Source of the DNA: Nitrososphaerota archaeon
Lineage (GTDB): Archaea > Thermoproteota > Nitrososphaeria > Nitrososphaerales > UBA57
DNA length: 32,000 nucleotides
Assembly: GCA_016871995.1 (NCBI GenBank)
Contig: VHBL01000002.1
Coordinates: 120,001-152,000 of the forward strand
Direction: 5' to 3'
Part shown: piece by piece, positions 12,179 through 17,944 of the stretch
Layout: the number at the start of each line of letters is the position of its first letter
How positions within the stretch are numbered: position 1 is the stretch's first letter
Position numbers and translations under genes: made by a program
The notes under the pieces: model-generated
Seen by the model: the letters and a program-made list of their open reading frames with translations, nothing else
What the model was told of the DNA's origin: nothing
Databases searched by the model: none

Positions 12179-12240
12179 AGGAATAATAAAGCCACGAAGA
12201 TATTTATTGCCCAGAATTTCGAAAGTTTCCGAAATACATC

Positions 12241-13464
12241 ATGGGTAAGGTACAACTACTTCAATGCAGGGAGTGCGGCAAGGAATACGAACCCACATTC
12301 CGATATATATGTGAAGAATGTTTTGGCCCTCTTGAGGTCAAATATGATATAGCATCGATAAAAGTGACTGGAGAAACTTTTGCGTCAAGGCCTAAGAGCC
12401 TCTGGCGATATTTTGAGCTTTTACCGCTGGATGAAAAGAGCAGGATCATTGATCTTGGCGCAGGCTATACTCCTCTTCATAAGGCGGAGAGACTTGCAAA
12501 GAGGCTAGGGCTCAGGAATCTGTACATAAAGAACGATACCGTTAATCCGACGTTTTCCTTCAAGGACAGGCCCGCAAGCGTGGCAGTTTCAAAGGCTCTT
12601 GAATTGGGTTTGTCCGCTGTGGGTTCACCCTCAACGGGTAACCTTGCAGCGGCAACAGCAGCGCATGCTGCAAGGGCAGGTCTCCCATGCTACATCTTCA
12701 TACCTTGGGACATCGAACCTACGAAGGTAGTTCAGGCAGCAGCTTATGGAGCCGAAATAGTGGCTATAAAGGGGACTTACGACGATGCGAACAAGCTTGC
12801 GACACAGGCTGGCGAGATTTACAACATAGGCGTAGTCAACGTGAATCTGAGGCCATACTATGTTGAAGGTTCAAAGACACTTGGCTTTGAAGTATGCGAG
12901 CAGCTAGGATGGAAAGCCCCCGATCATGTGATTGTCCCAACGGGAAGTGGTGCATTGCTCTGCGCATTGGGCAGAGGTTTTGACCAGCTCAAAAGTGTAG
13001 GTTTGATCAGGGAGAACAATGTCAAGATTACGAGTGCACAACCCTACGGATGCTCACCAATTGTAGATGCGATAAAGAAGTCTACCGATGTAATAGACCC
13101 TGTAGAAAGGCCCAATACTATTGCAAAGAGCCTTGCCATTGGAGAGCCAGGAGACGGTATATATGCAGCAAGAACAGTCATGGAAACCAAAGGCTTTGGC
13201 GAAAACTGTACAGATGAAGAGATTGTTGATGCGATAAAATTGCTTGCCAGCACCGAAGGGATCTTTACAGAGCCTGCAGGTGGAGTAACGATAGCAGTTC
13301 TGAGAAAACTTATCGGCGAAGGAAAAATAGATGCTGGTGAAACTGTAGTGTGCTATGTAACGGGCAATGGCCTGAAGACTCCAGAAGCAGTTTCAGCGCC
13401 AACCACAAAACCCATCGCCATTGACCCGAAGATCGAAGTACTTGCGCAGATAATCCGAAGGTGA
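12241..13464 (+). CDS. thrC: threonine synthase-family PLP enzyme with N-terminal zinc ribbon (ThrC, or a ThrC-like sulfur-carrier-dependent synthase)
   Basis: The Zn ribbon is CRECGKEY...CEEC. The PLP-lysine motif is NPTFSFKDRPA, followed by GSPSTGN and the Gly-rich TGSG loop. The product is 407 aa. It is the first gene of a three-gene operon. Confidence 0.8.
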   Translation: MGKVQLLQCRECGKEYEPTFRYICEECFGPLEVKYDIASIKVTGETFASRPKSLWRYFELLPLDEKSRIIDLGAGYTPLHKAERLAKRLGLRNLYIKNDTVNPTFSFKDRPASVAVSKALELGLSAVGSPSTGNLAAATAAHAARAGLPCYIFIPWDIEPTKVVQAAAYGAEIVAIKGTYDDANKLATQAGEIYNIGVVNVNLRPYYVEGSKTLGFEVCEQLGWKAPDHVIVPTGSGALLCALGRGFDQLKSVGLIRENNVKITSAQPYGCSPIVDAIKKSTDVIDPVERPNTIAKSLAIGEPGDGIYAARTVMETKGFGENCTDEEIVDAIKLLASTEGIFTEPAGGVTIAVLRKLIGEGKIDAGETVVCYVTGNGLKTPEAVSAPTTKPIAIDPKIEVLAQIIRR

Positions 13465-13468
13465 AAAC

Positions 13469-13750
13469 ATGGCAGCAGTTAAAGTGATAGTTCCAGCAGT
13501 ACTGTCGAGCAGCACAAAAGGCGAAAGAGAAGTCAGCATTGCAGGGCAAACAGTTTCGGAGATAATATCTCTTCTTGCCAAGAAATACGGGGAAACTTTC
13601 GAAAGGAGAGTTTTAGATCTGGATGGGAAGCCCAGAACGGTGCTGAACTTTTACGTCAATGGAAAGAATATCAGGTTTCTAAATGGGTTTGAAACCCAGC
13701 TCAAGGATGGAGACGAAGTCATGCTGTTACCTGCAGTAAGCGGAGGATAG
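13469..13750 (+). CDS. MoaD/ThiS/CysO-family beta-grasp sulfur-carrier or ubiquitin-like protein ending in Gly-Gly
   Basis: The 93-aa product ends ...DGDEVMLLPAVSGG directly before the stop. The spacing of G.TV.E....L and YVNG...RF is typical of CysO/MoaD-type carriers. It starts 4 nt after the thrC stop, with GGTGA upstream. Confidence 0.85.
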   Translation: MAAVKVIVPAVLSSSTKGEREVSIAGQTVSEIISLLAKKYGETFERRVLDLDGKPRTVLNFYVNGKNIRFLNGFETQLKDGDEVMLLPAVSGG

Positions 13751-13753
13751 AAG

Positions 13754-14869
13754 ATGTCGTTTACAGATGAAGATCTAGAAAGATACTCGCGTCAAGTAGT
13801 GCTTGAGGACATAGGATTCGAGGGACAAGAAAAAATCAGGAATTCTACCATTACAGTAGTGGGTACTGGAGGGTTAGGAAGCCCTATTGCACTCCAACTC
13901 ACGGCGATGGGCATAGGAAAGCTCAGGCTCGTAGACAGGGATGTAATAGAGATTTCAAACCTGCACAGGCAAATACTCTTCAGCCCAGAAGATGTAGGGC
14001 TACCAAAAGCCGAAGTCGCAGTCAAGAAACTGCAGAAGCTGAACCCAGATGTAAAGTTCGAAACGCTGACATCATCACTCAATGACGACAGTGCAGAATA
14101 CATCATAAAGGGTTCAGACATAGTGATCGACGGTTTGGATTCTATCTATGCTAGATATGCATTGAATAGGGCATGCTTGAAGCTTAACATTCCATATATA
14201 TTCGGTTCTGCGATAGAAACTACAGGCTCAGCATCAACCTTTATTCCCAAAAATACTCCCTGCTTAGAGTGCCTGTACCCGAATTTGAGGGATGAGGACC
14301 TGCCAAAGTGCGGCACCGAAGGTGTGCATCCATCAGTACTTACTGTAGTTTCAAGTGTCCAAGTATCCGAAGCTATAAAATTGATAGTTGGGAAAGAACC
14401 GAGCCTTGCGGGGAACCTGTTCTACGCTGACATAAGAGATCTAAGCTTCGACAAAATCAAGATCGCAAGGCAGCCTGACTGCAAAGCCTGCGGCAATAAA
14501 GCCAACATTTCAGAACAGGTACTTCCTCGTAAACTGGTCGAAGAAATCTGTGGCAGAGAGCGCGGCAAGTCTGTCCATGTCATAACCCCTAAAGAGGATT
14601 TGCAATTGGATATTGCTAAGGTAGCGAGGGACCTGAACATACGAAACCTCAGGATACGGGCAATTGGAAATCATGGAATTACGTTCTCTTACGATCCAGA
14701 AATTAATGTAAGTTTGGTAAAGAGCGGCGTCGCTACGGTAGTAGGTGCGAATACGGAGCAGAGAGCGCTAGAAGTCTTCGATGACTTGGTGGTATCTGGC
14801 TTGAAAACCCCGCTGAACAAGGTAGACCCTAAATTTAATGTGGTTCTTGCGTCGTTAGCACACAATTAA
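13754..14869 (+). CDS. E1-like adenylyltransferase (ThiF/MoeB/UbaA family) with an unassigned C-terminal domain
   Basis: The N-terminus is RYSRQ. The nucleotide loop is VVGTGGLGSP, followed by DRD motifs. Zn-site CxxC pairs are present (CLEC ... CKAC), with a crossover-loop Cys (PKCGTEGV). After CKACGN there are about 120 further residues that are not rhodanese-like. It starts 3 nt after the carrier's stop. Confidence 0.85.
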   Translation: MSFTDEDLERYSRQVVLEDIGFEGQEKIRNSTITVVGTGGLGSPIALQLTAMGIGKLRLVDRDVIEISNLHRQILFSPEDVGLPKAEVAVKKLQKLNPDVKFETLTSSLNDDSAEYIIKGSDIVIDGLDSIYARYALNRACLKLNIPYIFGSAIETTGSASTFIPKNTPCLECLYPNLRDEDLPKCGTEGVHPSVLTVVSSVQVSEAIKLIVGKEPSLAGNLFYADIRDLSFDKIKIARQPDCKACGNKANISEQVLPRKLVEEICGRERGKSVHVITPKEDLQLDIAKVARDLNIRNLRIRAIGNHGITFSYDPEINVSLVKSGVATVVGANTEQRALEVFDDLVVSGLKTPLNKVDPKFNVVLASLAHN

Positions 14870-15590: not shown

Positions 15591-17944
15591 ATGATACGAC
15601 AGATAACTCTGTTAAGTCTGATTGTGGCAACGATCCTACTAACTTCAACGTTAATGGCAGCACTAATCCCTCGTGTGAACGCTTTTGATCCTGGCGGTCC
15701 TCCAGTTGGAGGAGCAGCTCCAACAGTTGCTACCGGCAACTGGGAATGGATAAACTACCAGCCTACTGGAGGTAGTTATAGTCCTCAAACCCAGATAAAC
15801 AAAGATAATGTACAATATCTAGAAACGAAGTGGGTATATCCGTATACCGCGCCTCCAACGCCGTCAAAGTTAGGACTTTGATTCCCCAGCAAGGCTCAGG
15901 TGCTCCAGTTATTATCGTAGATGGAAATGTATATGTGCTCATGAACGACCATAGGATCCTTGCGATCGATGCCGGTACTGGCAAGCTCATATGGAACAAC
16001 ACCTATGGTACGACTTTTGATGCTGTCGGCGAAGCTGCAAAATACCCATTCTTACAGCCTCCCCTTCTGCATGGTCATGCTCTTAACTACTATAGAGATA
16101 AGGGTTGGCTCATTGGGAGCTCATTAGGCTCTTGCAACCTCTACGCGGTAGATGCTAAAACGGGCATAACATCATGGGTCCTAAGGACAGAGCAGATTTG
16201 TGGTACTGTTGCGGAATTAGGCGATCCCACAAAACTGGTTGGAAAAATTCCTGACTTTCCTGGTGCAGGCGCTCAACAGCCTTCTGGTTTTCCCGAACCT
16301 GGAAGTCTAGGGAATCAAGGATTTTACAGCAGCCTTGGTACTCATCCTCCAGTGTTCCTGGGCAACATAATGTTCTTTCCCGTGGCTGGTGCGAGTGGCC
16401 AAGGAGGTAGATCATTCGTTACAGCCTTCGACATGACCGATCCTCAGAATCCAAAGCGATTATACAGGACATTTACGCAGGGTCCAGCTCAAGGAGATCC
16501 TAACTGGGCGATAAACCAATGTAAAGCAGTAGGAGGAAATGGCTGGTACTTTGAATATCCAAAATTCCTCGAAAGCATTAACTATCCAGCAAGAGACAGG
16601 GACCCAACATATCTAGCAACAAAATGTACAGATGTAGCTGATGATGTCGTAAAGAACGACGGAATAGACATGGTTCCAGGTTCTCCCACCTTTGGAAGAA
16701 TGCATACATCCAGCCAAGCAGGTTCAGCGGTATGGGGTAACTATCCACTCGATCAAGAAACTGGCATTGTCGCGTTAGGTTGGGGTGACCAAGGACCGTA
16801 CACGAACTTGACAAACAAACATGGCCCAGGTCTTCATGGAAGTGGTTATACAGCACATGACGTCAGAACGGGAAAAATGGTCTGGTGGTTCCAAGCTGTT
16901 TTACGCGATCTATGGGACTATGACTGCTCGTGGGGCGGGATAATTGGGCAGGTTCAAGGAAAGAAGGCATACATCAAAGGTTGCAAGGATGGTATTGTTC
17001 ATGCATTAGACTGGTCGACAGGTAAGCCATTCTGGAATTATGACGCTCCCAGCATCCTTAGAGGAGGGAACAACATCAAGACGTACTATGGTGTTGGAGC
17101 AAACAACAGGCCAACTGATCCAGAAGCATGCTGCAAATTGACAAAGGCAGACATGGGCAAGCCATGGATGACTTACCCGCTCAAAGACCCGTTTGTACAG
17201 AACTGCTACACCGTTTGTCTGGAATCCGACTTCGCTTATGACGGTAAGCGGATTTATGTCGCAACGTTCAACAATATGGGCACTCATCGCGTGACTAATG
17301 TCATAACCTTCGGTAACTCGGGAGCAGCGGTTCCAAGAGCAAACTTCCCAGACCAGACTTTCACTGTAGATTCAAACATTGATGCCGTAGATGTGAATAC
17401 GGGCAAGAGGGTTTGGTCATATAAGATCGATACGTTTGGTTTCAGGGGAGGTGTTATGACTACTGGAGGAATGGTTGTAGTCTATGCCGCTGATGGAAAC
17501 CTGAAGTTCCTCGATGCAGAATCTGGCAAGCTGTTGCATGAAAAAACCTTCGGCGTTCCAGTTAGCGTCATGCCTACTATCGGGGCTGACAAGAATGGCA
17601 AGTACAAGATCTTCGCACACGTGGGTGGTAGTGGAGGCTTCCTTTTCAGTCAGGCTGCAACCACAGCAGGCAATCTAATGGCATTCGGTCTGCCTGACAA
17701 AATCCCACAGCCCCAAGTGATTACCAAGGAAGTCATCAAAGAAGTACCAAAGGAAGTCATAAAGGAAGTCATCAAGGAAGTAGTCAAAGAAGTACCAAAG
17801 GAAGTCATCAAGGAAGTAGTCAAAGAAGTACCAAAGGAAGTAACAGTAGAAACTATCAGTCCTATTTCGTATGCAGCGATAGGAATCGGTGTAGTAATGA
17901 TAGTCATATCAGGAGTACTGTTCAGTAGAAGGAAGAAGGCATAG
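15591..17944 (+). pseudogene. PQQ-dependent-dehydrogenase-family 8-bladed beta-propeller protein, secreted with a C-terminal anchor; frame broken near 15840-15885
   Basis: ORF 15591..15881 carries the signal peptide and the family N-terminus (W.W.NY....G.YSP..QINKDNV..L...W). ORF 15830..17944, shifted by -1, continues with GAPVIIVDGNVYV...AIDAGTGKLIW and later PQQ-type repeats (VDVNTGKRVW, LDAESGKLLH). Together they make one gene split by a frameshift. Confidence 0.8.
17726..17842 (+). repeat. 12-nt tandem repeat (about 9.75 units) encoding (KEVx)n
   Basis: The encoded peptide is KEVIKEVPKEVIKEVIKEVVKEVPKEVIKEVVKEVPKEV. It includes a 36-nt higher-order unit present twice. It lies just before the C-terminal TM helix and RRKK of the PQQ-type protein. 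Confidence 0.9.

Follow-up and report, generated by a model that had tools for sequence, protein, structure and literature searches.

We report here on a three-gene operon in a window of 32,000 nucleotides (nt) of DNA from a Nitrososphaerota archaeon (assembly GCA_016871995.1, contig VHBL01000002.1, positions 120,001 to 152,000), which encodes a threonine synthase (ThrC)-fold enzyme dependent on pyridoxal 5'-phosphate (PLP), a small sulfur-carrier protein and an E1-like adenylyltransferase (P0001, P0002 and P0003, respectively; Table 1). The assembly is 96% complete, with 1.55 Mb distributed over 11 contigs, and the closest homologues bear the names Nitrososphaerales and Thaumarchaeota. As the initial annotation had described, the three open reading frames (ORFs) are co-directional, all on the + strand, and are separated by gaps of only 4 nt (P0001 to P0002) and 3 nt (P0002 to P0003). 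The last codons of the carrier gene, GGA GGA, provide a GGAGG motif 8 nt before the start codon of the E1 gene, and GGTGA is found ahead of the carrier start, an arrangement that fits translational coupling. An AT-rich box upstream of the first ATG (Table 1) may be an archaeal TATA element followed by a very short leader. No riboswitch, including the S-adenosylmethionine (SAM) riboswitch, was found in the window by an Rfam scan, and a scan of the window for sigma-70 promoters and terminators covered bacterial signals, which are uninformative for an archaeal host.

P0001 belongs to the PALP/ThrC family (PF00291, 3e-73; TIGR00260, 293.7 bits), with an N-terminal CxxC...CxxC ribbon and the catalytic lysine motif SFKDR lying within NPTFSFKDRP (residues 102-111). 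The middle product, read earlier as a 93-residue beta-grasp protein ending in ...AVSGG, indeed matches the ThiS/MoaD family (PF02597, 2.8e-14), and its sequence ends in ...LLPAVSGG immediately before the stop codon. P0003 contains a ThiF adenylation domain (PF00899, 7e-76). The nucleotide loop (GxGGxG), the CxxC pairs (C170xxC173 and C243xxC246) and the crossover-loop Cys186, all of which had been picked out from the sequence, proved to be invariant or nearly so among 17 relatives, the invariant residues being G37, G39, G40, G42, C170, C173, C186 and C243. P0003 is also the single ThiF-family match in the whole genome.

A route from O-phosphohomoserine to homocysteine that employs a ThrC homologue and a sulfur carrier had been mentioned in the initial annotation. 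Such a route does exist: in Streptomyces albulus, the ThrC homologue MetM uses the thiocarboxylate of the carrier MetO to convert O-phosphohomoserine into homocysteine (Hasebe et al. 2024, Appl Environ Microbiol 90:e01247-24, as cited in PMC13759103, 10.1101/2024.10.14.618325 and PMC12172450); MoeZ acts there as sulfur ligase, and Mec is required for maturation of the MetO terminus (10.1101/2024.10.14.618325, PMC13759103). MetM 'is often misannotated' as threonine synthase, in the words of GapMind (2026). The archaeal operon has in common with this system a ThrC-homologous PLP enzyme adjoining a Gly-Gly (GG) carrier of the ThiS/MoaD fold, an E1-type sulfur loader, a separate true ThrC, a substrate supply through ThrB and an enzyme annotated as threonine synthase. 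We consider it likely that P0001 to P0003 constitute an archaeal homocysteine synthesis operon of the MetM/MetO type. In kind, the operon would be a further case, with lineage-specific features, of a pathway whose first description, in 2024, came from Streptomyces. The E1 is encoded within the operon and carries a C-terminal domain of the TATA-binding protein (TBP) fold with an invariant Cys, whereas MoeZ carries a rhodanese; no JAMM/Mec protein is encoded in the genome and the carrier is produced GG-terminal; there is no SAM riboswitch; and no second E1 is encoded in the genome, so that this one is shared with other carriers.

What can be seen directly in support of this reading is the content and order of the genes, the orthology of P0001 and P0002 to the enzymes and carriers of the carrier-linked clade, the presence of a separate ThrC and the lack of any other known route to homocysteine. 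P0001 is not the sole ThrC of the genome, as a second one, P0004, is encoded 70 kb upstream by a gene that overlaps thrB (homoserine kinase); P0004 scores 345 bits on TIGR00260, against 294 for P0001. This thrB-thrC pair provides for threonine synthesis, and for O-phosphohomoserine as well, independently of the operon. Among canonical met and cys genes, the genome holds a split MetE and a separate CysK/M-family enzyme (TIGR01136, 303 bits), together with IlvA, while neither a true Cys_Met_Meta_PP (MetB/Y-type) enzyme (best match 27 bits) nor a COG1900/HcyBio protein was found in it.

The linkage of enzyme and carrier is conserved in relatives and well beyond them. In a sample of 41 genomes of the order, 29 encode a P0001-type enzyme (about 290-305 bits on the thrC model); a ThiS-family gene lies directly downstream of it in 28 of these, with the E1 in third place in 22. 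Outside the order, species-representative genomes yielded 80 loci on scanning. The 77 that extend past the enzyme gene are informative, and 73 of them encode a GG carrier 3' of the enzyme, in the same orientation and no more than a few hundred bases away. Archaea and seven bacterial phyla are represented, the loci coming from Nitrososphaerota, Bathyarchaeia, Geoglobus, Cyanobacteria, Chloroflexota, Actinomycetota, Nitrospirota, Planctomycetota, Nitrospinota and Binatota. A natural fusion of enzyme and carrier occurs in an Actinomycetota metagenome-assembled genome (MAG), as one 528-residue frame that ends in ...AVAGG (L119:1838-3421). Adjacency of the two genes is far beyond chance.

Every cluster-bearing genome examined carries another ThrC as well, which is of the P0004 type in some genomes and thrB-linked in two families. 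In ammonia oxidisers the other ThrC is 450-490 residues long and is 35-37% identical to P0004, compared with 24-29% to P0001. The alternative that the P0001 type is the sole ThrC of ammonia oxidisers, based on one match per genome at 1e-30, was rejected, because the family model finds the second, longer ThrC. Within the order, a MetB/Y-type or HcyBio protein is encoded in 11 of the 12 genomes without the cluster and in 7 of the 29 with it, leaving 22 of the 29 without either; this complementarity is a pattern counted over related, non-independent genomes and not a statistical test.

Phylogeny places P0001 inside the carrier-linked clade and apart from bona fide ThrC. In a maximum-likelihood tree of 128 sequences, a branch with a Shimodaira-Hasegawa-like approximate likelihood ratio test (SH-aLRT) value of 100 splits 94 carrier-linked enzymes, P0001 among them and the loci picked by similarity to P0001, from 34 others, which comprise P0004 with its orthologues, the ammonia-oxidiser ThrC of the long type and a further 21 representatives. 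P0001 is 39% identical to P0004 and 53% identical to its counterpart in Microcystis novacekii. At 12 alignment positions one state is found in 90-94 of the 94 carrier-linked enzymes and another in 15-17 of 17 ThrC, and P0001 has the carrier-linked state at all 12 (see the discriminating sites in Table 1). The glycines of the ThrC motif GSFKDRG are replaced in the carrier-linked set (FSFKDRP in P0001), and the P0001 counterpart of NPxRxEGQ reads RPYYVEGS; the conserved active- and phosphate-site residues of ThrC (GSFKDRG, STGNT and NPxRxEGQ) are thus not retained in P0001. In ThrC structures, the STGNT loop and the arginine of NPxRxEGQ bind the substrate phosphate, which steers the addition of water. 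As far as sequence can tell, the remodelling of this site fits a shift from beta,gamma-replacement to gamma-replacement. P0001 was also considered as a cysteate synthase, a candidate that we rejected (TIGR03844, 73.5 bits against a cut-off of 324.9).

Table 1. Features of the operon and of related loci. Positions are those of the 32,000-nt window unless a genome (G), contig (C) or locus (L) handle or a residue is given.
Feature	Position	Strand	Basis or remark
P0001, MetM-like ThrC-fold PLP enzyme, 407 amino acids	12241..13464	+	PF00291, TIGR00260 matches
P0002, MetO-like sulfur-carrier protein, 93 amino acids	13469..13750	+	PF02597 match, C-terminal Gly-Gly
P0003, E1-like adenylyltransferase (ThiF/MoeB family), 371 amino acids	13754..14869	+	PF00899 match
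P0003 C-terminal TBP-fold (helix-grip) domain, residues 252-371	14507..14866	+	invariant Cys266-Gly-Arg...Gly271, AlphaFold2 model
AT-rich box ATATTTATT, 33-41 nt 5' of first ATG	12200..12208	+	read from sequence
Discriminating site, ThrC STGNT to carrier-linked STGNL	T134L; L135 (P0001 numbering)		phosphate site
Discriminating site, ThrC N to carrier-linked R	ThrC N204, R204 in P0001		described as compensating R207Y
Discriminating site, ThrC R to carrier-linked Y	ThrC R207, Y207 in P0001		
Discriminating site, ThrC Q to carrier-linked S	ThrC Q211, S211 in P0001		
Discriminating site, ThrC K to carrier-linked Y	ThrC K306, Y308 (P0001 numbering)		
Discriminating site, ThrC S to carrier-linked G	ThrC S345, G347 (P0001 numbering)		
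Carrier-E1 read-through	L024-L026, L028-L030 (G004, G008, G012, G120, G123, G141)		compare window 13745-13756
CysK/M-like + JAMM + carrier + E1 module	L043 (G126:C54:6880-9648); G140:C106, G122:C90, G137:C36, G150:C67		
ThiS-MiaB/RimO-like fusion	L007:205-1728, G000 contig C1, about 817.5-819.0 kb, - strand		

The carrier-linked clade that contains P0001 also contains the Microcystis pair, the carrier of which ends in ...PAVAGG; in contrast to the archaeal operon, the cyanobacterial loci have no E1 beside the pair. The 'ThrC' of Microcystis aeruginosa PCC7806 is 51.6% identical to S. albulus MetM, and the product of its neighbour gene is 47% identical to MetO (PMC12172450). P0002 is itself 44% identical to the carrier of M. 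novacekii.

Several points weigh against reading the operon as a homocysteine synthesis operon. P0001 exceeds the cut-offs of two NCBIfam threonine-synthase equivalogs (TIGR00260, 293.7 against 167.1 bits; NF006050, 319.3 against 303), so that sequence models alone cannot split MetM-type enzymes from ThrC. The link from P0001 to S. albulus MetM (UniProt A0A059WBP2) is transitive, running through Microcystis, and a homologue search with an actinomycete query gave, among the matches listed, only Acidimicrobiia-like proteins. The Microcystis study describes threonine-deaminase-like and weak ThrC activity but no clear MetM activity with Na2S, and ascribes a moonlighting role as threonine deaminase to the enzyme (PMC12172450). 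The catalytic chemistry proposed for the operon is carried over from Streptomyces, as cited by others. The genome has a lone MoaE (C2:59978-60298), with no MoaD beside it and none dedicated to it, and P0002 passes the subfamily cut-off of the archaeal 'MoaD family' (TIGR01687, 62 bits against 49.5). The selection of the tree loci by similarity and the relatedness of the genomes behind the complementary distribution belong here too.

The equivalog scores of P0001, the MoaE without an adjacent MoaD and the TIGR01687 score of P0002 would all suit a different account, in which P0001 is simply a further isozyme of threonine synthase, its carrier and E1 neighbours act as MoaD and MoeB and/or in tRNA thiolation, and the linkage means nothing for catalysis; the position of P0003 as sole E1, which must then serve every carrier, also speaks for it. 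We nonetheless regard it as improbable. The linkage has been kept across two domains of life and extends to an enzyme-carrier fusion, twelve ThrC-invariant positions are altered in P0001, including phosphate-site residues, and an isozyme would leave MetE without a source of homocysteine in this genome. No MoaE was detected in 13 of the 29 genomes of the order that carry the cluster, among them five complete single-contig genomes of ammonia oxidisers. Since the cluster is kept in these genomes, molybdopterin synthesis is not its sole purpose, which answers the earlier concern that the carrier might serve that pathway only. Moreover, genomes with a MoaE-adjacent MoaD retain the enzyme-linked, MetO-like carrier as well, and it is this carrier that P0002 resembles: identity to the enzyme-linked carriers of relatives is 39-60% (E 1e-22 to 1e-42), compared with weak matches (E 0.005 to 3e-4) to their MoaE-linked MoaD proteins.

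P0002 is well below the MoaD equivalog cut-off (TIGR01682, 20.5 against 66) and is not adjacent to MoaE, yet the genome holds no better MoaD candidate, and it may be that P0002 doubles as MoaD for the lone MoaE. With this MoaE present and P0002 above the TIGR01687 cut-off, the carrier and E1 have at least one other plausible client, and the carrier is probably common to more than one client in this genome. A second free GG carrier, P0124 (L008:1498-1860, - strand, contig C5), ends in ...PISHGG, and its gene lies among tRNA-modification genes, with those for CGI-121, Sua5 and a THUMP-domain protein as neighbours; a role as Urm1/SAMP2-like carrier for tRNA thiolation is probable. As P0003 is the sole E1 and the genome has only two free GG carriers, the E1 must serve this second carrier too. 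Two further observations concern the carrier repertoire. The same genome encodes a ThiS-fold domain fused N-terminally to a MiaB/RimO-like methylthiotransferase (UPF0004, Radical_SAM and TRAM domains), which has no free C-terminus (Table 1). In a sister genome (L140; G132:C8:83800-87800), two more GG carriers are encoded near a second MoaE and have no counterpart in the present assembly; either the repertoire differs within the genus or the counterparts lie in the missing 4%.

Protein thiocarboxylates that donate sulfur to PLP enzymes are known from two other systems: CysO-CysM-Mec-MoeZ, which makes cysteine in Mycobacterium tuberculosis, and HcyS-HcyF-HcyD-MetY, which makes homocysteine in Wolinella succinogenes. 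In both, as proposed here, the thiocarboxylate is made by an E1 and gives its sulfur to the PLP enzyme, but both use a JAMM hydrolase, which the present genome does not have. The enzymes and substrates differ as well: CysM, of fold type II, belongs to the CysK branch and acts on O-phosphoserine, and MetY, of fold type I, acts on O-acetylhomoserine, whereas the proposed substrate of P0001 is O-phosphohomoserine. The initial annotation had left homocysteine and cysteine side by side as products of a carrier-dependent synthase. Homocysteine is favoured, and this half of the claim is supported; a cysteine synthase acting on O-phosphoserine and the carrier thiocarboxylate, for all that it would follow the same carrier and E1 logic as M. 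tuberculosis CysO-CysM-MoeZ, is very unlikely. P0001 lies in the ThrC branch and no cysM or cysK model is found among its 25 best NCBIfam matches, the genome has the separate CysK/M-family enzyme mentioned above, and the presence of thrB fits O-phosphohomoserine as the substrate. Other lineages of the order encode, in a row, a PLP enzyme resembling CysK/M, a JAMM protease, and a carrier and E1 that are often fused to each other (Table 1). This module resembles the mycobacterial CysM-Mec-CysO-MoeZ system, and the existence of so distinct a cluster indicates that the cysteine-type module is a different entity.

It is equally hard to credit that P0002 is primarily a SAMP/Urm1-like modifier conjugated by the E1 to targets that might include the ThrC-like enzyme. 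In favour are its GG end, which is ubiquitin-like, the crossover-loop Cys of the genome's single E1, a score of 52.3 bits on the SAMP1 model (NF041918) and the double role of Haloferax SAMP1 as modifier and MoaD. Against it, this score does not reach the cut-off of 60, a JAMM deconjugase was not found in this genome or in three others of the family, and the specific pairing with a single ThrC subfamily across domains would go unexplained, as would the fusion of enzyme and carrier. The modifier function suggested initially may exist as a side role.

The absence of JAMM and rhodanese genes from the window, noted at the outset, is correct. For JAMM it extends genome-wide, as neither PF14464 nor PF01398 has a match in the 96%-complete genome, and two tandem-rhodanese proteins are encoded on a contig other than that of the operon. 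All four genomes of the family, the present one included, proved negative for JAMM proteins, and in this family the carrier gene ends right after GG. A carrier made with a free GG end needs no JAMM protein for its maturation. In ammonia-oxidiser families, by comparison, the carrier runs in frame into the E1 (...AVAGG-S-x...RYSRQ; Table 1), and each genome encodes two JAMM genes. The carrier of one genome (G116) has an 8-residue tail after GG, and many bacterial carriers continue for one to four residues past GG, as would be expected if Mec trims them.

MoaD-MoeB fusions have been recorded in 61 of 98 Thaumarchaeota (PMC11237513). We find these to be orthologous to the carrier and E1 of this cluster, joined in one frame in ammonia-oxidiser relatives, while in the present operon the genes are separate, with a stop codon straight after GG. 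In the published notes, the fusions and the TBP-bearing E1 group are treated as molybdopterin genes and are not tied to the neighbouring ThrC-like gene (PMC11237513, PMC3597702).

If the operon does make homocysteine, synthesis would begin with adenylation of the C-terminal glycine of P0002 by P0003. Persulfide sulfur from the cysteine desulfurases encoded in the genome, perhaps relayed via Cys186 and/or Cys266 of the E1, would then turn the acyl-adenylate into the P0002 thiocarboxylate. P0001 would eliminate phosphate from O-phosphohomoserine, supplied by the thrB elsewhere on the contig, and would add the thiocarboxylate sulfur at the gamma carbon, where a true ThrC adds water at the beta carbon, yielding homocysteine and regenerating the carrier; homocysteine would be converted to methionine via the split MetE. 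We infer the sulfur relay and the release step by analogy, as we do all catalytic steps in this organism.

The E1, with its Cys-bearing C-terminal domain, probably takes part in sulfur loading. No rhodanese domain was matched in P0003, and its MoeZ-model score of 182.8 bits falls short of the cut-off (647). Within the C-terminal domain, the Cys266-Gly-Arg...Gly271 motif is invariant in 16-17 relatives, though mean column identity over the domain is just 41%. In relatives, the domain gives a weak match to Pfam TBP (23.2 bits). Its AlphaFold2 model has a predicted local distance difference test (pLDDT) score of 91, and the top structural matches obtained with an exhaustive aligner are TBPs (Z 8.7, 8.6 and 8.3; root-mean-square deviation 2.7-3.2; 86-99 residues); Foldseek against the Protein Data Bank gave none at E <= 0.001. 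A domain-only search of a word-based index returned six close relatives. A C-terminal TBP domain was listed in 2013 in an uncharacterised ThiF-MoeZ-MoeB group (PMC3597702). The TBP-fold domain of P0003 occupies the position of the rhodanese in MoeZ/Uba4 E1s, and C266 and/or C186 may carry the persulfide that turns the carrier adenylate into the thiocarboxylate. A more far-reaching proposal is that the TBP-fold Cys-Gly-Arg domain is an unrecognised persulfide-carrying sulfurtransferase that replaces the MoeZ/Uba4 rhodanese, so that a single JAMM-free E1 would load one carrier serving both homocysteine and molybdopterin synthesis in a streamlined archaeon. We put this forward tentatively and consider it rather doubtful.

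Two irregularities were seen in E1 orthologues. In the sister genome G132, of the same genus, the orthologue stops after seven codons (MSFTDRV*; L042:2675-2760) and the match resumes at residue 20, which reflects either a frameshift or an assembly error in the MAG. In family f23, the best E1 match has one in-frame TAG in each of three genomes (G130:C43, G143:C26 and G153:C46), a recurrence that may point to a conserved stop, to read-through or to recoding, and away from random error. Elsewhere in the window, a 96-residue PQQ-repeat ORF (15591-15881) overlaps, in a different frame, the start of an ORF for a 704-residue PQQ beta-propeller (15830-17944); the two look like a single gene broken by a frameshift.

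In summary, a MetM/MetO-type function of this operon, if true, would explain methionine synthesis in this lineage and, by orthology, in ammonia-oxidising archaea, a group that ranks with the most abundant microbes of the ocean and of soils. For the 22 cluster-bearing genomes of the order that encode neither a MetB/Y-type nor an HcyBio protein, it would be the one recognisable route to homocysteine. The routine labels 'threonine synthase', 'MoaD' and 'MoeB' would all three be corrected, and the operon would offer a simple test system, in which the carrier requires no processing, the E1 comes with it and a JAMM protease is absent. For the sulfur-loading step, the uncharacterised domain of TBP fold on the E1 would become a concrete candidate.

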